From: Alphaproteobacteria bacterium
Lineage (GTDB): Bacteria > Pseudomonadota > Alphaproteobacteria > JANQMY01
Direction: 5' to 3'
Assembly: GCA_965228775.1 (NCBI GenBank)
Contig: OZ245840.1
Location: forward strand, 773,326 to 837,325
DNA length: 64,000 bases
Shown: positions 6,934 through 49,172 of the stretch, in pieces
Layout of the letters: every line of letters starts with the position of its first letter
How positions within the stretch are numbered: position 1 is the stretch's first letter
The notes under the pieces: model-generated
Database searches by the model: none
Told to the model about the DNA's origin: nothing
What the model saw: the letters and a program-made list of their open reading frames with translations, nothing else
Position numbers and translations under genes: made by a program

Positions 6934-7009
6934 GCCGGCTTAGCTCAGCTGGTAGAGCACCTGATTTGTAATCAGGGGGTCGGGTGTTCAAGTCACCCAG
7001 CCGGCACCA
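6934..7009 (+). tRNA. tRNA-Thr (anticodon UGU)
   Basis: Cloverleaf read manually. Acceptor GCCGGCT/AGCCGGC, D-arm GCTCAGCTGGTAGAGC, anticodon stem CCTGA/TCAGG with loop TTTGTAA (anticodon TGT), T-arm GGGTG-TTCAAGT-CACCC, and 3' CCA encoded. Confidence 0.85.
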
Positions 7010-7053
7010 TAACACCCCCCCCCCGAAAATCCAAGAAAAACAGTAGTCTAGCT

Positions 7054-7266
7054 TTGAGTCGTAACGCGATTGTTTATGCGTCGAGTACGCAGGAATACGC
7101 ACCAAAACGTGAACATGCCGTTGCTGAGCCGTTGCTAGAAATGAAAAAGAAACTTTCTGTTCCTCTGATCACCAAAACGCCCCCCGGACCGAAGGACAAG
7201 TTGTTCTGGGATACAGATGCCCATGGTTTGGGTCTCAAGATCACACCGGCGGGACGATCCGCCTAA
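7054..7266 (+). pseudogene. tyrosine integrase N-terminal fragment (P4-type arm-binding/DUF4102-like)
   Basis: 70-aa ORF ending GPKDKLFWDTDAHGLGLKITPAGRS, matching the conserved N-terminus of P4-family integrases (..KD..l.D..g.GL.lrvtPsG.k.w). No catalytic R-H-R-Y domain follows. The next ORF (7217-7462) is in another frame and unrelated. Confidence 0.5.
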
Positions 7267-7565
7267 GGAACTTCTCGATCTCCTCAACATCAGAGCAAGC
7301 GAAGAGACAAAACGCAGCCGGGCGTGGCCTAAGACACCGCAAGCTATGGGGATGGCTCTTGTCAGAATCTGTCCGATGCTTCGCCGCTTGGGCTACACTA
7401 TTGAGAAGCCCAAGAAATCGGGAAATCGGACTTGGATTATCCGTAGCATTAAACCGACCTAATGATTGTACGGGAGTTAATCCTGTCAGCCACGCGTCAG
7501 CGAGTCGAAACACACACAACAATCGACGACGACGCTATCGGCGAGGCGACACCAGTAGATCCTAA

Positions 7566-10500
7566 CTATGGACTTGGTACGATATCCAAGTAATCGACCC
7601 TTACCATCTCACCTCCCGCACGCGTTCCGACAATCTGAATTGAGTCGCCTGGGGCTAGAGACACATTGGTCGCGATGACCGCCGAGGTCTTATTCGCCGC
7701 CGATGCCGTCGAAGAGCCAAGGGATTGATCGAACACCTTGCTGCCAATCGCGCTGCCGTTAACATTCACCACCGCGGACGCTGTTCCGTCATTTTCATCA
7801 AAGTACCCAAGGGTGATGTCATACGTTCCAGCAGACCCTGCGAATGTCGATGTTGCCGTTCCAACCGTGGCACCGGTTCCTGTTTCAATCCCGAAGAATA
7901 TGAACGAGGGCAGCCTTACGATTTGATTGTTCGAGGCAACACCAGAGACCGTGTCTGTCTGGAACCCGGTCAGGCTCATATCCTCTGTTTCAATGCGGAC
8001 GGGTTGTGCCGCCGCTTGAACATCGACGCTCACCGTAACAGCAGAACTTGTTCCACCATTCCCATCGTTGGCTGTGTAATCGAAACTGGCAGCTCCAGTG
8101 TAACCGGTGTTCGGCGTGAACAAGACATCGCCGTTTACATCCAACGAGGCGGTACCATTCACCGCGTTGGCCACCGATGCGATCGTTAGAGTATCATTTT
8201 CCGGATCGGTATCATTCGCCAATAAAGTAGAGGCCAGGAATGTCGTCGCTGTGTCTTCTGTCGCAGTCACCGAATCCGCGACCGCCGTTGGCGCATCGTT
8301 CACCGCGGTTACACCAATCGATACCGTCGCCGAACTCGCACCCCCGTTTCCATCGGAGATGTCATAGGTAAAGCTGTCGGAGCCCGCATAATTCACATTC
8401 GGCGTGTACTGCACATCTCCATTTACGTCCAGCGAGGCGGTTCCATTCGTGGCGGCCCCCAGTGCCGTAATGGTCAATGTATCGTTTTCCACATCCGTGT
8501 CATTGGCCAACAAGGTCGATGCGAGAATTGTCGTCGGCGTATCTTCCGTCACCGTCAGCGAGTCGCCAGCCGCAACCGGCGCATCATTCACGCTGGTTAC
8601 GGTTACCGTCACCGTGGCCACATTCGTCCCACCGTTTCCGTCATCGGCTGTGTAGTCGAAACTGGCTGTACCGGCGAAATTCGTCGCCGGTGTGAACAGA
8701 ACATCACCATTCACATCCAGTGAAGCGGTACCATTTACGGCGTTCGCCACCGACGCAACGGTCAAAGTGTCATTTTCAGGATCCGTATCATTCGCCAACA
8801 AGGCTGACGCCAGAATGGTTGCCGGCGTGTCTTCGGTCACCGTTGCCGAATCCGCGACCGCCACTGGGGGATCGTTCACCGTTTGCACCTGGACACTCAC
8901 CGAAACAGAGCTTGTCCCGCCATTGCCGTCGTTTGCTGTGTAGTCGAAGCTTGCCGCCCCTACGTAGCCGGCATTCGGCGTAAATGCCACGTCACCATTC
9001 ACATCCAGCGAAACCACGCCATTCGTAGCGCTGCCTACGGCGGATATGGTCAGTGTGTCATTATCCGGGTCCGTGTCGTTGGCCAACAGCGCCGATGCCA
9101 AAATGGTTGCAAGCGTGTCTTCGGTCACCGCCACAGTATCGGCGACAGCTGTGGGAAAATCGTTCACAGCTGTCACACTAACCGTAACAGTCGCCGTACT
9201 GGTTCCACCATTACCGTCATCGGCCGTGTAGTCGAAACTCGCTGCTCCAGAGAAGTTTGCATTCGGCGTGAACAGCACATCGCCATTCACATCCAATGAT
9301 GCGGTGCCATTGGCCGCATTGGCGACCGACGCGATTGTCAGTGTGTCGTTATCCGGATCCGTATCGTTGGCAACAAGAGACGATGCCAGAATGGTTGTCG
9401 GTGTGTCCTCCGAAATCGTCGCAGTGTCCGCGACGGCCGTTGGCGGATTATTGTTGGCCGCTGCATTCACAATGATATCCAGATAGTCGATCCTGGCGAA
9501 CTCACGAACACTCGTATTACCGGAAATCTGGATCGTATCGCCGCTTGTAAGCGCTATTGCCGTTGCGACAACGGTTGAGGTTTTCGTTGCGGCCGTCGCG
9601 CGGGCGGACCCAAGCTGTTGATCGAAAGTCACCGATCCCACAGGTGAACCATTAACCGATACATCGACTGTCGACGTTCCGTCGTTCTCGTCGAAATACC
9701 CTAGAACAAGATCAAAGGTTCCGGCTTGACCGCTATACGTATAGGTCGCCGTGCCGGAAAATGGGGGCAGCGCGGATTCAAAGCCAATAAACTCCAGATA
9801 AGGCAAATGAATAATCTGGTCGTTTGACGCAACTCCAACGACGCTTTCCGTGTTGAAACCGGTCAACGTCATGGATTCCGCCTCAACACGAACCAATTGG
9901 GGCGCTGCCTGCACATCAACCGTCACCGTAGCGGAACTTGTGCCCCCATTGCCGTCATCGGCGGTGTAGTCAAAGCTTGCGGTACCAATAAAGGCCGCAT
10001 TCGGTGTAAACAACACATCACCACCGGCATCCAATGACGCTGTTCCATTAACCGCATTAGCAACCGAAGCAATTGTCAATGTATCGTTTTCCGGATCGGT
10101 GTCGTTCGCCAACAAGGCAGATGCCAGGATTGTCGTTGGCGTATCTTCCAAAATGGTTGCATTGTCCGAAACCGCCATCGGGGCGTCATTAACCGGCGAT
10201 ACATTGACGGTGACCGTCGCGGTGGCACTACCGCCATTACCATCGCCAGCTGTGTAATCAAAGCTCGCCACACCGGCATAATCGCTATTTGGGGTGAACA
10301 ATACGTCACCGTTCACATCAAGCGCAACCGAACCGTTGGTGCCATTCCCCACCGACGTAATTGTAAGTGGATCACTTTCGACGTCCGTATCATTCGCCAG
10401 CAGGGTCGATGCCAGAATTGTCTCAGGCGTGTCTTCCGTTGCGGTCACCGAATCCGCGACGGCAACAGGCGGATCGTTTACGGCTGTAACGTCAACAGCC

Positions 10501-13500
10501 ACCGATGCCGTGCTGGTCCCTCCATTCCCGTCATCTGCTGTGTAATCAAAGCTGGCCGCCCCCACATAGTCCGCGTCCGGCGTAAACAGCACGTCGCCGT
10601 TTACATCCAGCGAGGCGGTTCCGTTCACGGCATTCCCCACCGAAGCGATCGTGAGCGTATTGTTTTCCGGATCGGTGTCATTCGCCAGCAAAACAGATGC
10701 CAGAATAGTGGTTGGTGTGTCTTCGACCACTGTGGTTGAGTCAGCCACTGCCGTTGGCGGATCGTTGACCTCCTGGACCTCGACATTGGCGGTTCCGGTG
10801 CTGCTGCCCCCGTTGCCGTCGTCCACTGTGTAATCAAAGCTGGCCGGCCCCACATAACCCGCATTCGGGGTGAACTGAACATCCCCGTTCACATCTAAGC
10901 TGGCTGTCGCGTTGACGGCATTGGTAACCGACGTGACAGTGAGCGTATCGTTTTCCGCATCCGTATCATTCGAGAGCAATGTGGATGCCGGGATTGTCGT
11001 GGGAGTATCTTCGGCTGCCGTCAAGGAATCGGCCACCACTACCGGTGCATCGTTCACAGCCGTCACATCGACCGTGACGGTCGCGGTATCAGTACCGCCA
11101 TTGCCGTCATCCGCCGTGTAATCGAAACTTGCCGTGCCGAAAAAGTTCGAGTCAGGTGTGAACAGCACGTCCCCATTCACGTCCAGAGAGGCCGTACCAT
11201 TTGACAGGTTCCCGACCGACGCAATTGTCAGCGTATCGTTTTCCGGATCGGTATCATTTGCAAGCAAAGACGATGCGAGCAGAGTCGTTGATGTGTCTTC
11301 GACAACGGTGACGGAATCCGCAACTGCCGCCGGTGGGTCATTAACCGGTGTCACATCCACCGTTACTGTCGTTGTGCTGGTACCACCGTTACCGTCATCG
11401 GCCGTGTAGTCGAAAGCCGCGGCGCCAACATAACCAGCATCGGGTGTGAACAGCACATTGCCATCTAGGTCGAGCGCGGCCGTACCATTTGACGGGTACG
11501 CAACAGAGGCGATCGTCAACGTGTCGTTGTCCGGGTCCGTATCGTTCGCAACCAATGTCGACGCCAAGATAGTTGTCGGCGTATCCTCCGGCACCGCTAC
11601 GGCATCCGCCACCGCGGTTGGCACATCATTAACCGGTGTGACGTTAACAGTCACTGTCGTCGTATTCGTGCCGCCGTTCCCGTCATCGGCGGTGTAGTCG
11701 AAGCTCGCCGCTCCCGCAAAATCCGCCGCCGGTGTGAAAACAACATCGCCGTTCACGTCTAGAGAAGCCGTGCCATTCACGGCGTTGCTGACAGAGGCGA
11801 TCGTCAGCGTATCATTCTCCACATCGGTGTCGTTCGACAACAAGGTCGCCGCAAGAATGGTTGCTTGCGTGTCCTCTACTGTCGTTGCCGTATCGGCAAC
11901 TGCAACCGGAGCATCGTTGACCGGCGTGACATCAACAGTCACGCTTGCGGTACTTGTTCCGCCATTTCCGTCGTCAGCGGTATAGTCAAAGCTTGCGGCC
12001 CCAACATAGTCCGCATTTGGCGTGAACACGACGTCGCCGTTCACGTCCAGAGAGGCCGATCCATTCACGGCAGCTCCCACCGACGCTATCGTCAATGTGT
12101 CATTTTCCGGGTCGGTATCATTCGCCAGCAATGACGAAGCCAAAATGGTTGTTGGTGTGTCTTCAGCAAGAGTGGCCGTGTCTGCCACGGCTGTTGGCGC
12201 ATCGTTCACGGCATTCACAGTAACCGATACTGTTCCGGTCGCGTTGCCGCCATTTCCGTCCGTAACCGTGTAGCTGAAACTATCCGCGCCTGCAAAGTCC
12301 GCATTCGGTGTATAAGTGACACTGAGATTGTCCAAAGCGACCGTAACGGTGCCGTTCGTGCCGTTTGTCGCCGAGACAATGGTGAGTGTATCAGCCTCAG
12401 CATCCGTATCGTTGGCCAGCGGCGTCACAACTACAGCAGTTTCCTCGTCTGTCGTGACATTGTCGTTAACGGCCACAGGCGCATCGTTAACCGCGTTGAC
12501 AGTTACAGTCACTGTTGCAGAGGCACTACCGCCATTTCCATCGGATGCGGTGTACGTGAAACTGTCCGCACCGGCAAAATCCGCGTTCGGTGTGTACGTC
12601 ACACTAAGACTGTCTAATGCTACCGTTACAGTGCCGTTTGTGCCGTTCGTAGCTGAAGCAATCGTCAGAGGATCGTTTTCCGCATCCGTGTCATTCGCCA
12701 GAGGACTGATGGTGACGGCATTGTCTTCATCCGTCGTCGCGCTGTCATCGACTGCCACCGGTGCGTCATTCACGGCGTTGACAGTCACTGCCACGCTGGC
12801 TGTGTCGCTACCACCATTTCCATCAGAGACCGAATAGGTGAAACTGTCGGCGCCGCTGTAGCCAGCGTTCGGCGTATAGGTGAGGCTGAGATTGTCGGGC
12901 GCGAGACTGACCGTCCCATTGGCGCCGTCAGTTGCGGACGCAATCGTTAGATTGTCACCGTCCACGTCCGTGTCGTTTGCCAACGGCGTGACTGTCACCA
13001 CACTGTCTTCGTCAACCGTTGCCGTATCATTGGCCGCTGTGGGTGCATCGTTCACCGCAGCCACATCGATCGTCACTGTCGCCGAATTGGTCCCGCCATT
13101 GCCATCATCGGCGGTGTAGTCAAAATTTGCACTGCCAGCGAAATTTGCATCTGGCGTGAACAGAACATCACCGTTCACATCCAATGCCGCTGTCCCATTG
13201 ACAGGACTTGCTACCGACGACAGCGTTAGCGTGTCATTCTCGGGATCGGTATCGTTGGCCAACAATGTCGCCGCCAATATGGTTTCCGGCGTGTCTTCCG
13301 TTGCGGTCGCCGAATCCGCGACGGCAACAGGCGGGTCGTTTACCGGACTAACGGTCACAGAGACGTTGGCCGTGTCGCTGCCGCCATTCCCGTCTGAGAT
13401 CGTATAGGTAAAGCTGTCCGCCCCTGAATATTCAGCATTTGGCGTGTAGGTTACGCTCACCCCATCCACCGCCACGCTGACTGTGCCGTTGGTGCCGTTC

Positions 13501-16049
13501 GTCGCGGCAGTAATTGTTAGGGTGTGTCCATCAACATCCGTATCATTGGCAAGCGTTGTGATTACGGCCGCTACGTCTTCATCTGTTGTCGCCGTATCGT
13601 CATTGGCGACAGGTGCATCATTAACGGCGTTGACCGTGACCGAAACCGACCCGGTAGCACTGCCGCCATTCCCGTCGGATACCGTATACGTGAAGCTATC
13701 GGCCCCCTCATAGTTTGCCGCCGGCGTGTATGTCACGCTGAGATTATCCACAGCGACACTCACTGTTCCGTTCGCGCCGTTGGTCGCGGAGGCGATGGTC
13801 AACGTATCGCCTTCCACATCCGTATCATTGGCAAGAGGGGTGATCGTAACAGCCGTGTCTTCGTCCGTTGTCGCCGTATCATTATTCGCGACGGGGGCAT
13901 CGTTTACCGGGGTGACGGTTACCGAGATCGTAGCCGTCGCCGAGCCGCCGTTTCCATCAGAGATCGTATACGTGAAACTATCCGATCCGTTATATCCGGC
14001 ATTCGGCATGTAAAGAATACTGAGGCCGTCCACAGCCACGTCAGCGGTACCATTTGTGCCGTTGGTGGCCGAAGCAATCGTCAACGTATCATTGTCAATG
14101 TCTGTGTCGTTCGTAAGCGGGTTTATCGTCACGAACTCGTCTTCGTTCACAACCGCCGTGTCGTCGACCGCCACCGGAGCATCGTTGGCGGCGGATACAG
14201 TGACGGTAACCGTCGCCGTGCTCGTTCCGCCATTGCCGTCGTCAGCGGTATAGTCGAAGGCCGCGCTGCCGAAGTAATCAGCATTGGACGTAAAGACCAC
14301 ATTGCCATTCACATCCAACACAGCACTGCCATTGATGACGTTTGCAACCGAGGCGATCGTCAACACGTCATTATCAGGGTCGGTATCGTTCGCCAGCAAT
14401 GTAGCCGCCAATATGGTTTCCGGAATGTCTTCCGTTGCCGTGACGGCATCGGCCGCGGCGACAGGGTCGCCATTCACTGCTGAATTCACGGTGACCGTGA
14501 TGGCCCCTGTGGCGTGGCCCCCTTCACCGTCACTGATGGTGTACGTAAAGCTATCCGTGCCGGCGAAGGACGCAGACGGCGTGTAAGTGAGGCTTGCACC
14601 GCCTGCGGCCACCGCCACGGTGCCATAGCTGCCGTTCGTCGCCGATGTGATCGTCAGCGGATCGTTGTCCGGATCCGTGTCATTGGCGAGGGCGCTGATC
14701 GTCACCGCGACGTCCTGATCCGTCGTGGCCGTATCGTTGTTCGCCACCGGGAATCCATTCCCCCCCGCCCCTGCAGCCCCAATAAAGGCCATCTCACAGC
14801 CAATACCGGTGAACACATGTTCCGAACTGGCAAGCCATGCATTGCTGTCACAATAGCCAACCGTGGAGTCGTAAATGAGGGTCGTGTTCGCGGTGCGCAC
14901 CCTGTAATGCACGGTGCCGCCGATATTTTCCTGCACGGCGGAGAACGAACTTTGGACAACGCCGTCTGCATTGATTACCAGAAGAAACCCTTTAACCACG
15001 AGAACCGAGACCGTTCCCGTATCGGTCATGCCGTCCGCATCGGAAATCGAATAGGTGAATTCATCAAGCCCCACATAGGCCGTATTCGGCGTATACCGCA
15101 CAACACCGGGAGAGATGATCGACGTCGTCCCATGGCTGCCGGCCGCAACGCTGTCCAGCGTGATCGCGTCGCCATCCGGATCCACATCATTCGACAAAAC
15201 TGAAATATCGAGCGCGGTTTCGAACTCGACCCGCACGCGGTCCATCACCGCCACTGGCGTGCGCTTGAACTGCACCGTAATGTCGGCGGACGCCATGCCG
15301 CCATAGCCGTCGCTCACCGTGTAACTGACAGTTTTTGACCCGACAAATCCCGGATTTGGATCGAACTGAATCTGGGTTCCATTGTTGATGATCTGCGCCG
15401 TCCCGCCCGTGAATGGCGTGACGCCCGTAATCGTGAGCTGGTGACCGTCGGCATCCGTATCATTCTGCCGTGGATCGATAACCAATTGCGTATCCACCAA
15501 TCCGGTTATCTGGTCCGCATTGGCGACGGGAGATTGATTGGCGTTAATCGTCAGCGAGACCGTGGCGGTGTCACTCCCGCCCCGCCCGTCTTCGATCGTG
15601 TAAGTGAATGAATCCGGCCCCAGGAAATCCAAATTGGGCGTGTATTCAAGCGTATTCCCATTCACCCTTACCAAGGTGCCGTTGCCCGGCGCCGTAAACG
15701 AAGCGACGGTCAATACATCATTGTTGCCGTCTGTGTCATTATCTGTCGGGTTGAACCTTCTGGTCTCATTTTGCACCAGTGTCAGCGTATCGTCGGCGGC
15801 CACGGGCGGCACATTGACCGGCACGTTGGATACCGTCTCGGACACCCGGTTGCCGGCGGCGTCGTGCACATAGTCCACTTGCGACCCGTCATCGTAGATG
15901 ATGCGTATGAGCCGCCCCAATTCGTCATAATCGTATGTTTCCGCAACGGCAGCGCCCGCAAGGACCGTGAGTGCTGAAAATGCAAAGAGGGCCTGGCGGA
16001 CACGGGCCACCACGCCGTTCGATTTCGATCGACCGTTAAGTTTTTGCAT
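7566..16049 (-). CDS. giant tandem-repeat adhesin-like protein (cadherin-like/VCBS-type repeats)
   Basis: ~2827 aa from ATG 16049 (MQKLNGRSKSNG..., signal peptide ALFAFSALTVLAGAAVA). About 23 consecutive ~95-aa repeats of the form VNDAPxA.DDtaTt.EDT...I....LLaNDTDpDnDTLTI.SV.....GtA.LD.NGDV.FTP.A.Y.G.ASFDYTADDGNGG....TVTV. An RHS-type YD motif (YDYDELGRLIRIIYDDGSQVDYVHDAAGNRVSE) lies near the N-terminus. Two non-repeat beta-sandwich-like inserts are present. Confidence 0.8.
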   Translation of the reverse strand: MQKLNGRSKSNGVVARVRQALFAFSALTVLAGAAVAETYDYDELGRLIRIIYDDGSQVDYVHDAAGNRVSETVSNVPVNVPPVAADDTLTLVQNETRRFNPTDNDTDGNNDVLTVASFTAPGNGTLVRVNGNTLEYTPNLDFLGPDSFTYTIEDGRGGSDTATVSLTINANQSPVANADQITGLVDTQLVIDPRQNDTDADGHQLTITGVTPFTGGTAQIINNGTQIQFDPNPGFVGSKTVSYTVSDGYGGMASADITVQFKRTPVAVMDRVRVEFETALDISVLSNDVDPDGDAITLDSVAAGSHGTTSIISPGVVRYTPNTAYVGLDEFTYSISDADGMTDTGTVSVLVVKGFLLVINADGVVQSSFSAVQENIGGTVHYRVRTANTTLIYDSTVGYCDSNAWLASSEHVFTGIGCEMAFIGAAGAGGNGFPVANNDTATTDQDVAVTISALANDTDPDNDPLTITSATNGSYGTVAVAAGGASLTYTPSASFAGTDSFTYTISDGEGGHATGAITVTVNSAVNGDPVAAADAVTATEDIPETILAATLLANDTDPDNDVLTIASVANVINGSAVLDVNGNVVFTSNADYFGSAAFDYTADDGNGGTSTATVTVTVSAANDAPVAVDDTAVVNEDEFVTINPLTNDTDIDNDTLTIASATNGTNGTADVAVDGLSILYMPNAGYNGSDSFTYTISDGNGGSATATISVTVTPVNDAPVANNDTATTDEDTAVTITPLANDTDVEGDTLTIASATNGANGTVSVAVDNLSVTYTPAANYEGADSFTYTVSDGNGGSATGSVSVTVNAVNDAPVANDDTATTDEDVAAVITTLANDTDVDGHTLTITAATNGTNGTVSVAVDGVSVTYTPNAEYSGADSFTYTISDGNGGSDTANVSVTVSPVNDPPVAVADSATATEDTPETILAATLLANDTDPENDTLTLSSVASPVNGTAALDVNGDVLFTPDANFAGSANFDYTADDGNGGTNSATVTIDVAAVNDAPTAANDTATVDEDSVVTVTPLANDTDVDGDNLTIASATDGANGTVSLAPDNLSLTYTPNAGYSGADSFTYSVSDGNGGSDTASVAVTVNAVNDAPVAVDDSATTDEDNAVTISPLANDTDAENDPLTIASATNGTNGTVTVALDSLSVTYTPNADFAGADSFTYTASDGNGGSASATVTVTVNAVNDAPVAVNDNVTTDEETAVVVTPLANDTDAEADTLTIVSATNGTNGTVTVALDNLSVTYTPNADFAGADSFSYTVTDGNGGNATGTVSVTVNAVNDAPTAVADTATLAEDTPTTILASSLLANDTDPENDTLTIASVGAAVNGSASLDVNGDVVFTPNADYVGAASFDYTADDGNGGTSTASVTVDVTPVNDAPVAVADTATTVEDTQATILAATLLSNDTDVENDTLTIASVSNAVNGTASLDVNGDVVFTPAADFAGAASFDYTADDGNGGTNTTTVTVNVTPVNDVPTAVADAVAVPEDTPTTILASTLVANDTDPDNDTLTIASVAYPSNGTAALDLDGNVLFTPDAGYVGAAAFDYTADDGNGGTSTTTVTVDVTPVNDPPAAVADSVTVVEDTSTTLLASSLLANDTDPENDTLTIASVGNLSNGTASLDVNGDVLFTPDSNFFGTASFDYTADDGNGGTDTATVTVDVTAVNDAPVVVADSLTAAEDTPTTIPASTLLSNDTDAENDTLTVTSVTNAVNATASLDVNGDVQFTPNAGYVGPASFDYTVDDGNGGSSTGTANVEVQEVNDPPTAVADSTTVVEDTPTTILASVLLANDTDPENNTLTIASVGNAVNGTASLDVNGDVLFTPDADYVGAASFDYTADDGNGGTSTASVAVDVTAVNDPPVAVADSVTATEDTPETILASTLLANDTDVESDPLTITSVGNGTNGSVALDVNGDVLFTPNSDYAGVASFDYTAGDGNGGSATATVTVNVSPVNDAPMAVSDNATILEDTPTTILASALLANDTDPENDTLTIASVANAVNGTASLDAGGDVLFTPNAAFIGTASFDYTADDGNGGTSSATVTVDVQAAPQLVRVEAESMTLTGFNTESVVGVASNDQIIHLPYLEFIGFESALPPFSGTATYTYSGQAGTFDLVLGYFDENDGTSTVDVSVNGSPVGSVTFDQQLGSARATAATKTSTVVATAIALTSGDTIQISGNTSVREFARIDYLDIIVNAAANNNPPTAVADTATISEDTPTTILASSLVANDTDPDNDTLTIASVANAANGTASLDVNGDVLFTPNANFSGAASFDYTADDGNGGTSTATVTVSVTAVNDFPTAVADTVAVTEDTLATILASALLANDTDPDNDTLTISAVGSATNGVVSLDVNGDVAFTPNAGYVGAASFDYTANDGNGGTSSVSVSVQVQTVNDPPVAVADSATVTEDTPATILASALLANDTDPENDTLTVASVANAVNGTASLDVNGDVLFTPATNFAGTASFDYTADDGNGGTNVATVTVTVTSVNDAPVAAGDSLTVTEDTPTTILASTLLANDTDVENDTLTITALGAATNGTASLDVNGDVQYTPNVNYAGSDSFTYDISDGNGGASSATVSIGVTAVNDAPTAVADSVTATEDTATTFLASTLLANDTDPENDTLTIASVANAVNGTASLDVNGDVLFTPNTGYTGAASFDYTANDGNGGTSSAVTVSVDVQAAAQPVRIETEDMSLTGFQTDTVSGVASNNQIVRLPSFIFFGIETGTGATVGTATSTFAGSAGTYDITLGYFDENDGTASAVVNVNGSAIGSKVFDQSLGSSTASAANKTSAVIATNVSLAPGDSIQIVGTRAGGEMVRVDYLDIVPSP
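8080..14800. repeat. ~285-bp intragenic tandem repeats (about 23 copies) within the adhesin gene
   Basis: Highly similar protein repeats are mirrored at the DNA level. They produce many spurious antisense ORFs with an SPFTS...VPF...SVSFSGSVSFA periodicity. Confidence 0.75.
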
Positions 16050-23491: not shown

Positions 23492-23500
23492 AAGATAAAG

Positions 23501-23827: not shown

Positions 23828-23870
23828 AATGGCCGATCGCCCCTCTGCGAACACTTAACAGGAACTAGAA

Positions 23871-36812: not shown

Positions 36813-36857
36813 TCACGATCCGCAGATCCACCTCTTCGCAGGACTAGAATACTGGAG

Positions 36858-38654: not shown

Positions 38655-38770
38655 CCCAATCTGGTATTCATTCTTGTCACTTGGTTTACGGGTTTGTACC
38701 GGGAGACCTAGAGCGCGATCAGGTTACCTTGAAAAATGATCAAGCGCAGCTCTTACATACGCGGTGGGAT

Positions 38771-40009: not shown

Positions 40010-40017
40010 CCTCAGAC

Positions 40018-40788: not shown

Positions 40789-40799
40789 CTCTGAACTCC

Positions 40800-43205
40800 T
40801 TAAGTTGCGGCAAATGCCGGTTGTCCTGTGGATGCCTGTTCCGAACCAAGCGGCCTGAGCCACCGCAGCAGAACCGGAGCCAAAAGAAACTCCGCCAATA
40901 GCGCACTGCTGAATGCAATTGCAGAGGAAATTGCGAAGTTTCGAGGGCCGTCATAGATCGTATAGGTGAAGCCCATGAAGCCGAGCACCAGCACCATTGT
41001 GGTGAAAAGCAATGGACGCCCTACCGTCCGCATGGTTTCACGATAGGCCTTTTCGTAACTGCCGAACTGATCGAAATAGCGCCGGTAACGGACAAAGAAA
41101 TGCACTGTGTCATCTACGGCCACACCAAGGATCATTGGTGCCAAGACAAGCCCAACCATGTTCAGCTGAAATCCAAGAAGCCCCATCGCGCCAAGGGCGA
41201 AAAGCACCGGCAGCACATTTGGCACCATCGCAATGAGCCCTAAGCTCACTGAGCGAAGCGTTACGATCATGATAAGGGCAATAGCGATGAAGGCGAGCAT
41301 GAAACTTTGCCCCTGCCCCACCTTAATGAGCTCACCGAGGCCGCTCATCAGGCTAAGCGTGCCTGTGACCTTAACATCCACAGAGTTTACGCTGGACGCG
41401 ACATACGCTTCCACATCCGCCTCAAGTTCTTGAACCTGTGCAAGCGAGAGCGACTTTGTACGGGCTTGTATGCGCGCGCTGTCATAAGCAAAGCTGACAT
41501 ACTTCTCAAGCTGAGACCCGCCACCGCTTTCGTAGAGAAGCAAATACTCTGCAATCTGAGAGCTCTTTTCCGGAAGCCGATAGAAGTCCGGTTTGTTTTC
41601 ATAGACGGCGCGATGCATCTGCTTGATTTGATCAACAACGCTTGAGGTTTGGGTGACATAAGGATGATCTTCCAGAAACGCCTGCAAGCGTTCCAAGTCA
41701 CGCATCACCTCAATATCTTTGATGCCCCCTTCACGGCCGGTCTCAGCCACCAATTCCAGAGACATGGAGCCGCCCATCTGTTCGTCCACATACTCAAACG
41801 CCACGCGCATGGGATAGTCTTCCGGCAAATCTTGAATGGTGTTGGTCTCAATCTCGACGATGCTCAGGCCATAAGCCGCAGCGCTAATGGCAACCAAAAA
41901 CATGGCAGCGACGAGAGCTGGAAACCTCAGTGTAAATGCGGTCAACAAACCAAGCAGACGATCAAAAATATCTTCGCGGGGCACGGATCTGTCCACGACA
42001 ATTGCCTTGTCTTTTCCAAAAGAAAGCAATGGCACGGCAAAAATGAACGTCAGCAACAGCGCAACCCACACCCCGATGGCGGCCTGAACGCCAAGTTCCC
42101 TCAACGGAACCAAGTCCGTTGCGAGAAACGCCAAGAAACCGGCCGCCGTGGTAATGGTGGTCAACAAGATCGGTCCCGTTACCAGCGACATTGTGTGCCC
42201 CAATGCAGCCTTGCGCGACATCCCCTCATTGAGGCCCTGGCGGAATTCGGCGACCACGTGCATGGCGTCACCAATTCCCACACAGAGCAGCAAGGTGGGG
42301 ACAAGAATGACGAACAGGTTGAGAGTGAATCCGATATAAGCAACGATACCCATTGTCCAAATGACACTGAGGATAACCGTAAGCGCCGGCACCAACACTC
42401 CTGAAAAACTTCGTGTGGTGAATATCAGCATCACGGTCATACCGAGCAGCGCCAATGACATCCAACGCGGGGCCTCACGCGCCGTCTCCGTGTCCATTTC
42501 GAAATCCATGATTGGGCCACCGACCACATGGGTTTCAAGATCTGCAAAATCAGCGATAATTGCCTTTATGACAGGCGGGACATCTTTACGCGGATCAATG
42601 CCAAGTTCCGGGTAGTTCTCGAATTCAAGCAGTATGCCCGCCGTTCGCCGATCAGACGATACGAGGCGATCCCGATAGAGGGGGTCCGAAGTGGCTTTGC
42701 GGGCGATCTGGTCAAGTTCCGATTGTGGGAGGTCCAAATTCGGAATTAGGTCATCGATAACAATGCCACCCGGCACCCCTTCTATGGATTCCACATTCCC
42801 GATCCAGGTCATTTCGAGGAGATGTGGCGTTTCAAATTCGAGCCTGTCAGCAAGCTCACCGACACGCCTCAATGTCTGCGGCGCAAAAACATCTTCGAGA
42901 TCAATCAGAACAAAGACAAAGTCGTCGTTACCAAAGGTTTCCTTGAAGTCATCGAGGCGCGTTTTCGTATCGTCGCCGGACCGAAAGAACGTCTCATTTG
43001 AGTTGTCGATCCTAAGGTTTGGCAATTGGCTCGCCGCCAACGCTGTGGCTACGGCGACGACAAGCAAACTCAGAAAACGAATGCGAATGATAAAAGCAGT
43101 AAGTCCGGATGGCGCCATCATGCTTTGCGAGCCACGTGTCATACGTGGCGCCCCCTTTTTTGCTCTACGGAGAGCTTTATTTTCGTTAATGAGACGCATT
43201 TGCAT
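40800..43205 (-). CDS. RND-superfamily exporter (MMPL/COG1033-type)
   Basis: 801 aa with two blocks of ~6 TM helices, each preceded by a large periplasmic loop. The TM cores resemble the sterol-sensing/MMPL-like domains. Confidence 0.65.
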   Translation of the reverse strand: MQMRLINENKALRRAKKGAPRMTRGSQSMMAPSGLTAFIIRIRFLSLLVVAVATALAASQLPNLRIDNSNETFFRSGDDTKTRLDDFKETFGNDDFVFVLIDLEDVFAPQTLRRVGELADRLEFETPHLLEMTWIGNVESIEGVPGGIVIDDLIPNLDLPQSELDQIARKATSDPLYRDRLVSSDRRTAGILLEFENYPELGIDPRKDVPPVIKAIIADFADLETHVVGGPIMDFEMDTETAREAPRWMSLALLGMTVMLIFTTRSFSGVLVPALTVILSVIWTMGIVAYIGFTLNLFVILVPTLLLCVGIGDAMHVVAEFRQGLNEGMSRKAALGHTMSLVTGPILLTTITTAAGFLAFLATDLVPLRELGVQAAIGVWVALLLTFIFAVPLLSFGKDKAIVVDRSVPREDIFDRLLGLLTAFTLRFPALVAAMFLVAISAAAYGLSIVEIETNTIQDLPEDYPMRVAFEYVDEQMGGSMSLELVAETGREGGIKDIEVMRDLERLQAFLEDHPYVTQTSSVVDQIKQMHRAVYENKPDFYRLPEKSSQIAEYLLLYESGGGSQLEKYVSFAYDSARIQARTKSLSLAQVQELEADVEAYVASSVNSVDVKVTGTLSLMSGLGELIKVGQGQSFMLAFIAIALIMIVTLRSVSLGLIAMVPNVLPVLFALGAMGLLGFQLNMVGLVLAPMILGVAVDDTVHFFVRYRRYFDQFGSYEKAYRETMRTVGRPLLFTTMVLVLGFMGFTYTIYDGPRNFAISSAIAFSSALLAEFLLAPVLLRWLRPLGSEQASTGQPAFAAT

Positions 43206-43352
43206 CTAATCTTCGAAAAAATATACCGCCGTTCCAAAAATCCCCACACGATTTTCATCCCCACTTCAAAACAAAAACAGCGCGAATTATCTAAAAAAAC
43301 AAAAGCTTAGAGCTCTACCGAAGAGGCCTGAGCCATTTTGTATACGCGTATA

Positions 43353-44015
43353 CTATTTCCAATCCGGGATGCCGTCAAGCATGACTTTTAGGTTTTCCAC
43401 ATATCGCTCGCGCCCGCGATGATCCGGATTGGGCGCCTCTTCCATCAGCGCTTTCAATGTCGGATATCCTTCTGCATGGGTCATCATAAATTGCCGGGCC
43501 ACCGACGGACCGTCGCTTCGTGCCTCGACGTCCGTTAGTCCTTGATCAATCATCAGAGTGCCTACGGAAAACTTCCAAACCATGTTGTAGGCTTGGCTGG
43601 CCTTCTTCAAGGGCAGCCCCCCGTCTACAAACGCTTTGATGATTTCCTCCACGAACCAGAGGATCGACGGGCCGATGGACATTTCTTTTGCCAAAACCTC
43701 CTGTGCCCATGGGTTGGCGGCCAAGCAATCGTACAGCGCCAGCCAAAGCACGACCAACCGCTCTTTCGGATCGTCCGCAAGTTCGGGCTTTGGAATTTCT
43801 TTCGCCAATTCATCCAGCACAAGAACGATAAGGTGATCCATGCTTTCTACATGACGATAGATCGACATGGGAGAGCTACCGAGTTCTTCCGCTATACGCC
43901 TCATACTTAGCGACGTGCCGCCACTGGCTTCGAGAAGACGTTTAGCAACCGCAACAATGTCGTCACGGGACAACCGCGCGGGGCGACCGCGGGTGCTGGG
44001 CCGGGATTTTGTCAT
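43353..44015 (-). CDS. TetR/AcrR family transcriptional regulator
   Basis: 220 aa. N-terminal HTH LSMRRIAEELGSSPMSIYRHVESMDHL (TetR_N). Upstream of and co-directional with the RND module. Confidence 0.8.
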   Translation of the reverse strand: MTKSRPSTRGRPARLSRDDIVAVAKRLLEASGGTSLSMRRIAEELGSSPMSIYRHVESMDHLIVLVLDELAKEIPKPELADDPKERLVVLWLALYDCLAANPWAQEVLAKEMSIGPSILWFVEEIIKAFVDGGLPLKKASQAYNMVWKFSVGTLMIDQGLTDVEARSDGPSVARQFMMTHAEGYPTLKALMEEAPNPDHRGRERYVENLKVMLDGIPDWK

Positions 44016-44132
44016 TTAACGGATGTATCACGGCCAATCTTCAGGCGCAAAACTCAAGAGAGTCTTCACGTGATACTTGAGAAATGATTCTTAGGGCAGC
44101 CTGCTCCAAGGGAATACGTGCCCCCGAAAGGC

Positions 44133-44645
44133 TTAGGCACGCCCCATCGCCCGGACCGACGCAAGGTCTACGACCGCACCAGCCACTGAATTTGGTGCTG
44201 GTGTGGGAATATTCTCAGGTGCGCCAATCATCAGCCCACGCCTTAAATATGCATCCGCCAAATCGCTCGCAAGGCCCTGGAGCTGTGGTGTGATGTTCTT
44301 CGCAAACAGAAACCCCAAATAGGCGTCACGGCTTTCAATCTCGTCGGATTGAGCGGCATTGAGCGCACCCAACAATGCCCCTTCATCCGGGGTAACCCCA
44401 AGGGAGCCCGGTCTCGCTATGGTGACACGCCGTCCACCTTCATTTCCGAAAATCCGAGCCATGCCGAGCATTCGCCTCAATACGACTTCGCCCTGTTCCG
44501 TCCCGAAAATCCGCTCAAAGCCGCCTACGAGGCATCCGCATTGTGTGTGTCCCAAGGCACACGCCCGAAACCCCCACATTACGGTTGCTGCACCGAACCC
44601 CAAATTTGGCAAGCGCACGTTTCGCAAAAAATCAGCTTGAGACAT
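44133..44645 (-). CDS. hypothetical protein
   Basis: 170-aa ORF with coding-like composition. No recognisable motif. Confidence 0.25.
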   Translation of the reverse strand: MSQADFLRNVRLPNLGFGAATVMWGFRACALGHTQCGCLVGGFERIFGTEQGEVVLRRMLGMARIFGNEGGRRVTIARPGSLGVTPDEGALLGALNAAQSDEIESRDAYLGFLFAKNITPQLQGLASDLADAYLRRGLMIGAPENIPTPAPNSVAGAVVDLASVRAMGRA

Positions 44646-45227
44646 TGACCATCCTTATACTGAGAGAAAAAAGGGCTGCGGCACACGGTGCAAAGTCCGG
44701 GGAGGAATCGTCATATAGGAACATTTGCCGCCGCTGGCATTAAGGGAGCTGCCCAAGGCGCCACAGCCCAAGCTGAATTCAACTATTGCAAGGAATCTCG
44801 CGGTCCCAAACAAGCCAATTGGCTTTCGAGCCACTCGCGATGCGCATCGAGTTTTTCAATCGTCGTAACGCACCTATTCTCCGGAAACCGGATGAGTTCA
44901 GCACGCCAGCGATCAATTTCGCCGATCTGTTCATGTAGCCACCAAAGCGTTTGTGCTTGGGAACTTTGTCTGGACATACGTGTCTCCCGCAACTTGGTGA
45001 CGAGATCAACATATTTGATAATGAGTTGCAATAGCGATATGTGCCGTATCCCAGTTTCTGACTGCGGCAATCACGCACACCAATCAAAGCGACCTGAATT
45101 GTCGGGTTTTCTGCAGCCCTGACCTTGCCCATCGAAGGAGGAAACCCTAAATTCACCCCTGCTTTTGCAAATCATTTGCATATTTTGAGGCGGTCTCACC
45201 CCCGCCCTAGCCGATGCGAGGCCAGTC

Positions 45228-46100
45228 ATGAGTCGTTTCTGTTTCAGGCAATTGTTGATCGGCCTGGTGTTGTCAGCAGGTATCACATTCCCCGCGCTGG
45301 CCAAGGACCGCGTGGTCTCTCTCGGCGGGGACATTACCGAAATTATTTATTTGCTCGGCGAAGGAGACCGCATCGTCGCCACCGATTCAACCAGCGTCTA
45401 TCCCGAAGCTGCAACGAAAACGCCAAAAGTTGGCTATGTACGGCAGCTTTCGGCTGAGGGCGTTCTTTCCGCGGAACCAGATCTCATTCTTATCAGCGGA
45501 GCGGCGGGCCCGGAACCGGCTTTGCAGCAAATTCGCGACTCCGGCGTACAGATCGTCATTATGGAAACAAACTACACGCCTGACGCTATCCTTGAAAAAA
45601 CCCGGCGGGTCGCTGCCGCGTTGGGCGTGGCGGCGAAAGGGAACGCACTGATAGCGTCGATCTCTGCGGATTGGCAGCGTGCCAAACAAGAAATTAACGC
45701 TATGGACTTATCGCCGTCCGTCCTCTTCTTCGCCACCTTGCGTGAAGGCGCCCCTCGGGCGGCAGGCAAACAAACCGCCGCCCATGGCATCATTGAGATG
45801 ATTGGCGGAACAAATATTTTCGGAGGCCAGAACGGTTACCAGTCTTTGTCCCTCGAAGCCGCGGTGGCAGCCAATCCAGACATTATTCTTGTCATGAAAC
45901 ACAATGCCGACCAGATGGGCGGTATTGATAAGGTGAAGCTTCACCCGGCGATATCTCTCACAACGGCCGTTCAGAGCGGACAGATCTTTCTGGTCGACCA
46001 AGTGACCGTCATGCAGTTCGGCCCCCGGACACCTGGTGCGGTGGCCGACCTTGCCCGCGACATAAACGACAACTTGAAAAAATCGGGCGATGGCAGCTGA
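45228..46100 (+). CDS. hmuT: heme/siderophore-type ABC transporter periplasmic substrate-binding protein
   Basis: 290 aa. Signal peptide. DRVVSLGGDITEIIYLLGEGDRIVATD and later blocks typical of cluster A-II (BtuF/HmuT) binding proteins. Confidence 0.7.
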   Translation: MSRFCFRQLLIGLVLSAGITFPALAKDRVVSLGGDITEIIYLLGEGDRIVATDSTSVYPEAATKTPKVGYVRQLSAEGVLSAEPDLILISGAAGPEPALQQIRDSGVQIVIMETNYTPDAILEKTRRVAAALGVAAKGNALIASISADWQRAKQEINAMDLSPSVLFFATLREGAPRAAGKQTAAHGIIEMIGGTNIFGGQNGYQSLSLEAAVAANPDIILVMKHNADQMGGIDKVKLHPAISLTTAVQSGQIFLVDQVTVMQFGPRTPGAVADLARDINDNLKKSGDGS

Positions 46101-47190
46101 GACAGCCCTGCTGGCCGGAACCGGCCAGCTAAGGACAAAACGTCAACGTCAAGGACAAACGGTCCTTGTGGTTTGCGCCGCCTTGGCCTTGTTGGGATTT
46201 GTGTTGACCATCGTGATGGGGCCATTGGCGATTAGCACTTCGGACCTCTTGAGCGTGCTCGCCAAGAATCTTGGTTTGACGGACGCCAGCCATGTTTCAG
46301 CTGTTAAAGTCGGCGTGATTGAAAACATCCGTATGCCCCGTGCTCTCCTCGGTCTGCTGGTAGGCGCAGCATTGGGAACTGCAGGTGCCGCCATGCAAGG
46401 TTTCTTCAGAAACCCTTTAGCGGATCCAGGATTAATCGGGGTGTCATCCGGTGGCGCCCTCGCAGCGGTGGCCGTGATTGTTCTTGGCGGATCGGCCCTT
46501 GCCTCGGTTCTTAGTCTGCTGGGGTTATTCGCCATGCCTCTGGCCGCCTTTGCAGGCGCCTTGGTGACGGTGCTTTCAATCTACCGTCTATCGACCCATG
46601 ATGGCCGCGTTATCGTCGCCACCATGTTGCTCGCCGGCGTTGCGGCGAATGCTCTAGCGTTCTCCGGCATCGGCTATCTCACCTTTCTTGCCGATGACAC
46701 TCAATTGCGCGACTTAACTTTCTGGACGTTGGGCAGTCTCGGCGGAGCTGTCTGGGACCGCGTCTTGCCGGCGGTCTTGCTGATGATCATCTCTGTCGCA
46801 GGTTTGCTCACGCTCGCGCGTCCGATGAACTGCCTCCTCTTAGGTGAAGACGACGCCAAAACGCTGGGAGTGGACGTGGAAAGCGTGAAGCGGCGCGCGG
46901 CCCTTCTGACGGCCCTAGGTGTGGGCGCGGCAACCGCCGTATGCGGTATTATCAACTTTGTCGGACTGGTCGTTCCACACTTGGTTCGCCTTATGACGGG
47001 ACCGGATCACCGTTATGTTTTGCCCGGGTCTGCTCTTTTAGGCGGGGCGCTGGTTCTGTTTTCCGATCTCATCGCGCGACTTGCGGTTTCACCGGCAGAA
47101 CTCCCCCTTGGCGTCGTCACCGCGGCCCTCGGCGCGCCATTCTTTTTCTGGCTGCTCCTAAAAGACAAAAGACGGACCAATCTGGGATGA
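46090..47190 (+). CDS. hmuU: FecCD-family ABC transporter permease
   Basis: 366 aa. ~9-10 TM helices. Conserved FecCD motifs ([24 protein letters not shown]...LTAL). Confidence 0.8.
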
Positions 47191-47945
47191 GTGTAGAGCT
47201 GAAAAGCGCAAGCGTCGTCCGTACAGGGAACGCTATTCTCGACCAGGCCTCCGTCCAGTGCGTCGCCAGTCAGTTCACGGCGCTTTGCGGCCCCAATGGC
47301 GCCGGAAAGACTACTGCTTTGTCTCTGATGACCGGCGCCTTTCCACCGGATCGGGGGGGCGTTTTCTTCCACGGTCAGAGCGTCAAAAACTATAAACCGA
47401 TTGACCTCGCGCGGCGGCGCGCCGTCGTCTCACAAGCGTCAGTATTGAATTTTCCGTTTCAGGTCCATGAAGTGGTGGCCATGGGCCGTACACCGCATCT
47501 AGGCATCAGTTCACTGACGGAAGATGCAGACATCATCTCTGAAGCTATCGCACTTATGGACCTGCAGCCCTTCGCGGAACGGAACTACCTTACCCTGTCC
47601 GGCGGCGAGCGCCAGCGGGTAAATATCGCCCGTGCGTTGGCGCAAGTTTGGGACGCGGACAAACGGCTGGGCCATCCACCCTGGCTTTTTCTGGACGAAC
47701 CGACGGCGGCGCTTGACCTAAAATACCAACTCGCCTTGATGGATCTGCTGCGGCGACTGGCCGCCTCGGGTTGGGGCATCGTAGCCGTCTTACACGACCT
47801 TCATTTGGTCAACACTCATGCCGACCATGTGGTCTTATTCAACTCCGGACGCATACACTCAGCGTCCACCCCCGCAGAAGCCCTTACACCCGAACGCATT
47901 CAGGAAGTTTACGCGTTAGAAGCCCCCTTCGCGCTCACGGCCTGA
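47187..47945 (+). CDS. hmuV: ABC transporter ATP-binding protein (heme/iron-complex import type)
   Basis: Start MSVELKS overlaps the hmuU stop (ATGA). Walker A GPNGAGKTT, signature LSGGERQRV, Walker B LFLDEPT. The ORF-track frame extends upstream to 46941. Confidence 0.8.
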   Translation: MSVELKSASVVRTGNAILDQASVQCVASQFTALCGPNGAGKTTALSLMTGAFPPDRGGVFFHGQSVKNYKPIDLARRRAVVSQASVLNFPFQVHEVVAMGRTPHLGISSLTEDADIISEAIALMDLQPFAERNYLTLSGGERQRVNIARALAQVWDADKRLGHPPWLFLDEPTAALDLKYQLALMDLLRRLAASGWGIVAVLHDLHLVNTHADHVVLFNSGRIHSASTPAEALTPERIQEVYALEAPFALTA

Positions 47946-47948
47946 GGT

Positions 47949-48590
47949 TCAGTTTTCGGGCACCCGCTGGACCATATCCAGCCAACGATACTGGTTCTCT
48001 AGATAGTCTAAATAGAATTTGCAAAGCTCTTCGTCAGTGTGGGACGGAACTTCGTCGCTAAACTGCCGCTCAAGTTGATCGACCGCCCCGTGCCAGCCAG
48101 CCGCGACGGAAGGCCAAACGGTTCCAGGCCCGGCAGGCTGGCGATCAAAAGCCGTCGGCTTTCCTTCAACAGCTTCGGATGCAAGAACATCGGGTCCAAA
48201 TGTGTCTATGAACACGAATGTCGTTTCATGGTTGCCACTGGCCAATAGCTCGAACCGCATTCCTCCAGTAGCCCGATAAGAACCTGTCGGTTCGGCAATA
48301 TCGATGTATTGAGGTGCCTGAAAACTCGTTATGGTGTTGTCCCAATGATGGCGAAAAAGGCCGCCAACTTTGAGTTCAAAAACACGGGGCGGCGCGACCC
48401 ACCATTTGTTCAGGCCTTCCTTGGTACTGATCAGAGGCCAGACGTGGTCAACCGGCGCCTGCAAGTAGCGGATCCAGACCATCGCATGCTCGGTTAGCAA
48501 ACGGCCGGCTCGGTCAAGACGTATCTGATTGTCCCCAGCCATCACCCCACCTCCATTGGGTCTGGCCCTCGGCACATATCCGGCGAACAA
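47949..48590 (-). CDS. SRPBCC/AHSA1-like domain protein
   Basis: 213-aa frame. VDHVWPLISTKEGLNKWW matches the SRPBCC (START/Bet v1-like) N-terminal helix pattern. Start probably internal (MAGDNQ...). Confidence 0.4.
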   Translation of the reverse strand: MFAGYVPRARPNGGGVMAGDNQIRLDRAGRLLTEHAMVWIRYLQAPVDHVWPLISTKEGLNKWWVAPPRVFELKVGGLFRHHWDNTITSFQAPQYIDIAEPTGSYRATGGMRFELLASGNHETTFVFIDTFGPDVLASEAVEGKPTAFDRQPAGPGTVWPSVAAGWHGAVDQLERQFSDEVPSHTDEELCKFYLDYLENQYRWLDMVQRVPEN

Positions 48591-48623
48591 CCAATACCCG
48601 ACCGCCGGCTGTAAACTCTCGGA

Positions 48624-48941
48624 CTAGCCTTTCGCCGAGTCCAATACGACGGTGAACCCCTCGAATTCAGGATGGCCGAGATAGAGCACCTTATTGTCGC
48701 CCGCATTGCGATGGGCAGCCCGAAATGCTTCGGATTTTGTCCAGTCCACAAACGCGTCCTCGGATTCCCAAATAGTATGTGAGGCATAAAGCGTGTGATC
48801 TTCATGCTTCGGTCCACGCACCAACTGAAATTCCTTGAACCCCGGCACTGCATCCAAGTGCGTATCACGGTCTGCCCAAACCTTCTCAAATGCCGCCTCA
48901 CTTCCGGGCACAATTTTGAATCGGTTCATCGCGATGTACAT
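48624..48941 (-). CDS. ABM-domain monooxygenase (IsdG/HmoB-like, putative heme-degrading)
   Basis: 105 aa. Ferredoxin-like ABM fold signature. Placement beside hmuTUV suggests a heme oxygenase role. Confidence 0.5.
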   Translation of the reverse strand: MYIAMNRFKIVPGSEAAFEKVWADRDTHLDAVPGFKEFQLVRGPKHEDHTLYASHTIWESEDAFVDWTKSEAFRAAHRNAGDNKVLYLGHPEFEGFTVVLDSAKG

Positions 48942-49125
48942 AGTAGTTTAGCCTTTCTACTTCTAATGAACTGCGGGATCGCTCGAAGCGCCCAATTCCC
49001 ATCAGTCTCACAAGACTCTTGCGAATGATTAGCATTATACGAAATGCACTTCAACCAAGGTTTGCGCTGGGTACAAGAGGCCCAAAGCGCCTTAATGCCA
49101 AACGCATAAAGCGAGACACTAGAGA

Positions 49126-49172
49126 TTTGTTTAATCAGGAGATCGGGTGTTCAAGTCACCCAGCCGGCACCA
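49126..49172 (+). repeat. degenerate third copy of tRNA-Thr 3' end (old att scar)
   Basis: TTTGTTTAATCAGGAGATCGGGTGTTCAAGTCACCCAGCCGGCACCA has 3-4 differences from 6965-7009. The last 28 nt are identical. Confidence 0.55.

Follow-up and report, generated by a model that had tools for sequence, protein, structure and literature searches.

The window analysed here is a 64,000-nt stretch of the 5.31-Mb chromosome record of a poorly sampled, Rhodospirillales-like alphaproteobacterium. It holds a single tRNA gene, tRNA-Thr(UGU), on which ARAGORN and Rfam agree (72 bits in Rfam, the sole match at the gathering threshold), and the 3′ part of this gene recurs twice further to the right. The three copies delimit two adjacent segments: segment 1 (7010–38654, 31.6 kb), which has an exact 45-nt direct repeat at both ends, and segment 2 (38655–49172, 10.5 kb), which lies between copy 2 and copy 3. 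To the left of the tRNA are metG, a DUF1761 and a DUF502 gene, two glycosyltransferase genes (GT2 and GT1) and a small open reading frame (ORF). To the right of copy 3 follows a block encoding, in this order, a sigma-54 response regulator (NtrC), a hybrid kinase (HK), UDP-glucose dehydrogenase, ManC, a NUDIX protein, a type I secretion system (T1SS) and an RTX protein. We argue that the array tRNA, segment 1, copy 2, segment 2, copy 3 is probably the product of two tandem integration events at the tRNA gene. The features that define it are given below (att, attachment site; attL and attR, left and right site).

6934–7009, + strand: tRNA-Thr(UGU), the putative attL; its repeated 45-nt core is 6965–7009
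7118–7138, + strand: arm-type double motif CCGTTGCTgagCCGTTGCTAG, directly 5′ of the ATG of the integrase remnant
7141–7266, + strand: 41-codon remnant of the N-terminal part of an Arm-DNA-bind_3 (P4-type) tyrosine integrase, by similarity to the proteins P0289 and P0295
7253–7462, + strand: C-terminal fragment of another element gene, deletion-fused to the integrase remnant (similarity to the C-terminus of P0289)
38528–38548, + strand: the arm-type double motif again (CCGTTGCTacgCCGTTGCTAG), 62 nt 5′ of copy 2
38583–38599, + strand: P-arm motif AACGACTTAAAGCGAGA, in register with 49101–49116
38610–38654, + strand: copy 2 of the tRNA 3′ part, exact over 45 nt; putative attR of segment 1 and left att site of segment 2
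49101–49116, + strand: P-arm motif AACGCATAAAGCGAGA, upstream of copy 3
49126–49172, + strand: copy 3 of the tRNA 3′ part, a 47-nt degenerate variant; putative outermost attR, 22 nt from the NtrC stop codon
49195–50622, − strand: sigma-54 response regulator gene (NtrC, Pfam), the first gene of the right block that is common to relatives

The tRNA-Thr gene, its partial copies and the synteny breakpoint

The exact 45-nt tRNA 3′ end occurs twice in the window, at 6965–7009 and 38610–38654 (0 expected by shuffling), and the alignment of tRNA and copy 2 extends over 49 nt with 48 identities. The last 27 nt of the tRNA have three exact occurrences, the third at 49146–49172. In copy 3, TT is inserted and two G are changed to A relative to the tRNA, in each case within the part derived from the anticodon arm, while the last 30 nt of this copy are exact; the four differences fall within the first 17 of 52 positions. 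Repeat matches of this kind were seen in 0 of 100 shuffles. All three copies are direct, on the + strand, begin in the anticodon loop or stem and end at CCA. Copies 2 and 3 lack the 5′ half of the tRNA (ARAGORN, Rfam and alignment), and a sensitive search (blastn-short, word 7) found no fourth copy of the core in the window up to position 64,000.

The sequences around the cores add to the likeness of copies 2 and 3. Each has CCCAA directly after its core, where the tRNA has TAACA and then a run of ten C; apart from CCCAA, a comparison of the three P′ arms on the right-hand side, those of the tRNA and of both copies, gave no likeness. On the upstream side, AACGACTTAAAGCGAGA (38583–38599) stands in register with AACG-CATAAAGCGAGA (49101–49116), each 9–10 nt 5′ of its core, and the score of this pair was equalled anywhere in 200 × 200 nt by 7 of 500 shuffles. 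We refer to this core-upstream motif in short form as AAAGCGAGA. A preliminary description of the window had reported three direct copies of the tRNA 3′ end, the last of them degenerate, together with short flanking similarity of copies 2 and 3; both observations hold, the repeats lying beyond chance. The data support reading the repeats as att-type footprints and not as tRNA genes or pseudogenes. The C10 homopolymer itself (7015–7024) begins 5 nt past the CCA end, at the start of segment 1.

Close relatives, located by exact-sequence look-ups, show how the tRNA end compares elsewhere. In contigs L161 (GCA_028289425.1) and L169 (ENA ERZ25074695), the order metG-DUF1761-DUF502-GT2-GT1-orf-tRNA-Thr is kept at 72–79% nucleotide identity to the window, and homology between the window, L161 and L169 breaks exactly at the tRNA 3′ end (7009/7010) in all three pairwise comparisons. 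What follows the tRNA is unrelated to segment 1 in both: AF_1680, TetR and CoA-transferase genes in L161, and acyl-CoA dehydrogenase and transporter genes in L169. Neither has a repeat of its own tRNA end within the 5.7–9 kb downstream. A further contig, L171 (Logan DRR227406; 5042–5080), stops at position 39 of its tRNA-Thr, where the repeated part begins, which fits a repeated tRNA 3′ part, and hence an island, also in this organism. These comparisons support the tRNA 3′ end as a true insertion site and as a synteny breakpoint in relatives.

Among more distant genomes, a scan of genome contigs with MetRS reached at best 68% identity among the matches listed, and tblastn of the window proteins found no island genes at these distant loci. 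The divergent synteny of metG and tRNA-Thr(UGU) is old, with conserved neighbours in alphaproteobacteria. A scan of metagenome contigs with NtrC gave identities of ≤53%, too distant for synteny.

The tRNA genes themselves carry a further trace. In the window (6934–7009), L161 (5728–5803) and L169 (11713–11788) the first 48 and the last 11 nt are identical, and the T-arm differs in each, with compensatory pairs (GGGTG/CACCC, ACAGG/CCTGT and GGGGG/CCCTC). This pattern suggests that tRNA-Thr is probably a mosaic gene, the 3′ part of which has been replaced by element-borne copies.

Segment 1 and its integrase remnant

The 41-aa ORF at 7141–7266 gave no significant match when Pfam and PHROGs were run on it directly. 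As the query of an exhaustive phmmer search over 1.84 billion representatives it returned 12 matches. The best of these, P0289 (170 aa, encoded on a 21.7-kb contig), is 90% identical over its residues 1–39 to window 7141–7257 and continues as an Arm-DNA-bind_3 domain. P0295 (399 aa), which is 54% identical to the remnant over the same N-terminal residues, has the full domain set of an integrase: Arm-DNA-bind_3, Phage_int_M and Phage_integrase (Pfam). The N-terminal integrase stub that the preliminary description had placed after the tRNA is recognizable in both comparisons. Residues 124–170 of P0289 match window 7253–7393 at 87% identity, within the fragment at 7253–7462, which has no Pfam or PHROG match of its own; the intervening residues 40–123 (84 codons) are missing from the window. 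On these alignments P0289 is the same deletion-fused remnant in another genome, the window has lost a further 84 codons, and the recombinase of the island is long dead.

The arm-type double motifs tie this remnant to copy 2. The 21-nt pattern CCGTTGCTnnnCCGTTGCTAG has exactly two occurrences in 64 kb (7118–7138 and 38528–38548) against 0.04 expected, one at each inner end of segment 1, and in an excised circle the two would flank the core. In lambda- and P4-type integrases, such a layout is that of the arm-type sites bound by the Arm-DNA-bind domain. By analogy, we infer that the CCGTTGCT repeats of the motifs may be integrase-binding sites. A contig of a relative, L164, provides a parallel: there short GTTGGTAT-type direct repeats, together with the 3′ fragment of a tRNA beginning in its anticodon loop, lie upstream of an intact integrase gene with this domain architecture.

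Next to the tRNA, the 41-codon remnant is all that is left of an integrase in segment 1, and segment 2 has none; no other integrase was found in the window by tblastn with the L164 integrases, run against the window and all loci. As the window holds no intact, functional integrase, neither segment can excise alone. Viral contigs scanned for the 30-nt core and for relatives of P0289 and P0295 gave no match.

The remainder of segment 1 is occupied by four loci.

7566–16241, − strand: giant repeat adhesin of 2891 aa (Pfam), with ∼25 Big_9/cadherin-like repeats of 288 nt and repeat families D1–D4
16769–25959, + strand: Rhs toxin locus (Pfam RHS_repeat), comprising a full Rhs gene (16769–23491, 2240 aa), a small low-GC ORF from 23501 and an orphan Rhs cassette (24523–25959)
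25923–37598, mixed strands: type II secretion system (T2SS; Pfam), with gspM, gspL, gspJ, pseudopilin genes, gspG, gspF and gspE on the − strand and gspD, gspK and gspO on the + strand
37711–38090, − strand: IS3-family transposase remnant (rve_3 at 37711–37992, E = 1.3e-5, and sequence reading)

The T2SS is complete (gspD, E, F, G, pseudopilins, J, K, L, M and O). The 288-nt repeats of the adhesin correspond to 96-aa tandem units, and a single RHS-repeat match lies near its N-terminus; it shares the island with the neighbouring T2SS. In the Rhs locus, a 300-nt repeat of the Rhs core (21670–21969 versus 24576–24875) is 94% identical. The orphan C-terminal cassette lies downstream of both the main rhs gene and the 108-aa ORF (GC 0.43), and this low-GC ORF may encode an immunity protein. 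At the gene-poor right end of the segment, a 76-nt stretch (38308–38383) is 91% identical to positions 295–370 of the sister contig L174, near the start of that contig, and may be a small conserved repeat or RNA.

Among the major ORFs of 7–49 kb, which are adhesin, Rhs, T2SS, RND and heme genes, Pfam detected no relaxase or type IV secretion families, and the window ORFs searched had no Pfam or PHROG matches to phage structural or replication genes. These results speak against an integrative conjugative element (ICE) and against a prophage. Taken together, the exact terminal repeats, the integrase remnant, the paired motifs and the breakpoint in relatives make segment 1 very probably a dead integrase-borne island.

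Segment 2 and the right-hand boundary

Segment 2 consists of two gene modules.

38771–45081, − strand: module a, encoding a DUF1302-like protein, a LolA-like protein, an HAE3/MMPL RND transporter, a TetR regulator and orf170 (Pfam and NCBIfam)
45228–48941, mixed strands: module b, encoding heme ABC uptake (periplasmic binding protein, FecCD permease and ATPase), an AHSA1-like gene and hmuQ (Pfam and NCBIfam)

HmuQ and the heme ABC ATPase both exceed the NCBIfam cut-offs. The gene content given in the preliminary description (adhesin, Rhs locus, T2SS and IS3 remnant in the first segment, RND module and heme uptake in the second) is confirmed throughout by Pfam and NCBIfam.

Both modules have counterparts in sister genomes. 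The DUF1302-like protein has homologues at 85–91% identity, and the block orf170-TetR-RND-LolA-like-DUF1302 (window 38771–45081) is kept in L172 (GCA_028289425.1) and L174 (GCA_028279895.1) at 75–76% nucleotide identity. Its neighbours differ between the two, and L172 is a contig other than the one with tRNA-Thr. The heme module (window 45315–48958) is 73–80% identical at the nucleotide level in L162 and L163, where it is followed by a LysR gene and not by an att copy. L162 and L163, collinear in other respects, lack the AHSA1/SRPBCC-like gene that the window has at 47949–48590 (− strand), with the heme ABC ATPase gene on one side and hmuQ on the other. Homology with the relatives ends 116 nt short of the att copy on the copy 2 side and 167 nt short on the copy 3 side; these unique stretches sit where the arms of an element would be expected.

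Beyond copy 3, the NtrC orthologues of three relatives are 81, 74 and 71% identical and lie within HK–NtrC blocks. The homology of L164, L165 and L166 with the window ends at the NtrC stop codon every time, and what follows differs: a truncated tRNA-Phe fragment, an integrase and a type I restriction–modification (R-M) island in L164, catalase-peroxidase genes in L165 and an adhesin gene in L166. In L164 (11733–13178), the 3′ ∼48 nt of tRNA-Phe(GAA), without the 5′ half, come directly after the NtrC stop, at a junction that equals window ∼49173–49194. Next come GTTGGTAT-type repeats, then genes for two integrases, the first of them a 408-aa Arm-DNA-bind_3 protein, and the type I R-M system. 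Such a partial tRNA with an integrase, where the full tRNA is missing, suggests a further island, tandem or rearranged, at this junction of the chromosome. L164 and L169 belong to the same assembly and have similar coverage but are different large contigs, so that tRNA-Thr and NtrC are presumably not neighbours in that relative. In the window, copy 3 is the sole marker of the right-hand boundary.

Divergence from L164 is uneven along the right block, ManC-NUDIX-T1SS (55567–60623) being 83% and the adjacent NtrC–HK (49196–53042) 70% identical at the nucleotide level, which hints at recombination within the block. Downstream of the T1SS genes lie palindromic intergenic elements that resemble repetitive extragenic palindromic (REP) sequences (61262–61419); similar elements occur in the sister genome contig L162 (9743–9834). 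A 22-nt piece of them recurs inverted at 38705–38726, between copy 2 and the DUF1302-like gene.

History of the array and comparison with known systems

In the history that we consider probable, the tRNA-Thr(UGU) gene downstream of metG would serve as the chromosomal attachment site (attB) for elements with a P4-type Arm-DNA-bind_3 tyrosine integrase. The integrase would recombine a tRNA 3′ part carried by the element, from the anticodon loop to CCA, with the tRNA gene, so that the tRNA is rebuilt at the attL end and the attR end keeps a partial copy. The present array would have arisen from two or more events of this kind, in which two distinct, though related, elements took part. The element site (attP) of segment 1 would have matched the tRNA over 45 nt, ending at CCA, and that of segment 2 from the T-arm to 5 nt past CCA, with an imperfect match in the anticodon arm. 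The different attP cores (ending at CCA versus CCA+5) argue for two separate recombination events, and the differences in copy 3 would fit attP-derived heterology to the left of the crossover better than random decay. Segment 1 would then have decayed, its integrase being reduced to 39 matching codons and deletion-fused to a fragment of another element gene, with the double motif kept at both inner ends. The order of the two integrations cannot be deduced, since both orders give the same final array. From these features we infer that the repeats were made by integrase-mediated recombination and that segment 2 started out as an element; for segment 2 we lean only slightly towards an origin as a second element over native DNA trapped by rearrangement.

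Several observations weigh against this history. No integrase or other mobility gene was found in segment 2 (Pfam/NCBIfam on all major ORFs of 38.7–49.1 kb; tblastn with integrases). Its modules are ∼73–76% identical at the nucleotide level to those of sister genomes, where they lie at other loci, a value like that of metG–GT1 (72–79%); as the two sets of identities are equal, the modules either co-diverged with the core or moved only within the clade. The 116 nt to the right of copy 2 hold 22 nt of the host REP-like element, also present at 61398–61419. The integrase remnant has its deletion junction in common with P0289, which comes from another genome; segment 1 is thus no recent arrival specific to this strain. 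No relative has an empty tRNA-Thr|NtrC junction (L161 and L169; L164, L165 and L166): the empty tRNA-Thr site that the preliminary description had envisaged was not seen, since tRNA-Thr is next to the NtrC gene in none of them. Finally, GC and GC3 (GC at third codon positions) drop at the tRNA and do not return to left-flank values after copy 3. GC is 0.560 in the left flank, 0.532 in segment 1, 0.541 in segment 2 and 0.526 in the right flank; the corresponding GC3 values are 0.67 (five genes only), 0.58, 0.60 and 0.555.

Because GC3 is still 0.555 to the right of copy 3, no boundary on that side can be drawn from composition, and the compositional break anticipated in the preliminary description (0.67 to 0.58–0.60 to 0.555, without recovery past copy 3) fails at that end. 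The AT-rich patches cited there as a sign of foreign origin are real local GC minima. They coincide with intergenic or junction features, namely the adhesin/Rhs and gspE/gspD divergent intergenic regions, the Rhs tip/immunity region and the IS remnant, and add little to the case for foreign origin. The central proposal of that description, successive integrations of two independently acquired islands, stands for segment 1 on the integrase remnant, the paired motifs and the breakpoint; for segment 2, acquisition from outside is not supported, given the lack of a mobility gene and the clade-native identity of the modules. The proposal is thus supported in part. With att sites at both ends and no integration or transfer genes, segment 2 falls under the definition of a cis-mobilizable element (CIME). 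It is best described as CIME-like, that is, as apparently clade-native DNA and not a clear foreign import.

The same observations invite a history with one real island, segment 1, in which copy 3 is the relic of an older, nearly lost element and the 10.5 kb are native DNA brought in by rearrangement or within-clade capture. It would account for the finding of both modules in sister genomes, in other contexts and with a divergence like that of the core, for the lack of mobility genes, for the host REP-like fragment just right of copy 2 and for a composition indistinguishable from that of the right flank; moreover, every junction examined in the clade is rearranged between relatives. However, it is difficult to see how an attR could come to lie 10.5 kb from the tRNA other than with the DNA between them enclosed by the att sites of an element, copy 3 retains the element-type upstream motif in register with copy 2, and the unique 116 and 167 nt next to the att copies lie where element arms are expected. 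We regard this history as unlikely.

Somewhat less likely still is a native-gene cassette, in which the RND and heme modules of the clade, enclosed by att sites, could be moved as a unit in cis by related tRNA-Thr integrases. If true, this would explain why the modules show core-like divergence yet occupy different loci in sister species, and also why the tRNA-Thr T-arm and the DNA that follows it differ in every sister genome.

Copy 3 might also not be the outer boundary, the exchanged region running on through the NtrC–HK, polysaccharide, T1SS and RTX block beyond 49.2 kb, possibly with more att copies outside the window. With 0.555, the right block has a GC3 equal to or below that of the segments, against 0.67 left of the tRNA; ManC-NUDIX-T1SS is closer to L164 (83%) than the adjacent NtrC–HK (only 70%); and in relatives the block is not near tRNA-Thr and, in L164, abuts a different island. 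We nevertheless find such an extension improbable: no further core copy occurs up to 64,000, L164 shares the synteny of the block from HlyD through NtrC, NtrC–HK is conserved in four relatives, the neighbouring island in L164 has the opposite orientation relative to att, so that the block is not one common element, and the ‘core’ GC3 is defined by five genes only. A reading of the repeats as tRNA-Thr pseudogenes, named as a possible refutation in the preliminary description, or as segmental duplications, with no link to site-specific integration, has nothing in its favour beyond the sequence similarity itself and is effectively refuted, as copies 2 and 3 are without a 5′ half and start in the anticodon loop as integrase cores do, the integrase remnant and paired arm motifs flank segment 1, and synteny with relatives breaks exactly at the tRNA end.

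On the history of two tandem integrations, the locus is a clean, annotated tRNA-Thr integration hotspot in a poorly sampled lineage, whose now-immobile island combines a giant adhesin and an Rhs toxin locus with a complete T2SS, which helps genome annotation and the reading of strain differences. Its main added value is one of caution: DNA flanked by att sites need not be foreign, segment 2 being clade-native by its divergence.

Tandem accretion at a tRNA attachment site is a well-described phenomenon, and no new mechanism is implied. The accretion model is established, as is that of CIMEs, elements that have kept their att sites and lost their recombination genes (PMC5704250). The ICESt1-related elements of Streptococcus thermophilus (PMC5704250) are alike in having three direct att copies and two adjacent segments, one without integration genes, formed by successive integrations into one target. 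The locus described here differs in its tRNA-Thr target, its alphaproteobacterial host and its P4-type Arm-DNA-bind_3 integrase, and also in that both segments are dead, no conjugation or mobilization genes were found and the CIME-like cargo is clade-native.

The Asn-tDNA islands of Klebsiella pneumoniae (PMC4891358) and the composite island CGI48 at tRNA-Trp in Shewanella (PMC8978831), both with P4-like integrases, share insertion at a tRNA 3′ end, direct repeats and an integrase adjoining the tRNA, here in the form of a remnant in segment 1, as well as adhesin, toxin and secretion cargo and a hotspot that is variable between relatives. In contrast to these islands, the integrase here is inactivated by deletion, the compositional signal is weak and there is no empty site among the relatives compared. 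In the tandem islands at ssrA of Dehalococcoides (PMC3146451), adjacent islands at a target present once are likewise marked off by several copies of a small-RNA 3′ end. Target gene and cargo are not those described here, and the Dehalococcoides islands keep their integrases, with circular intermediates detected.

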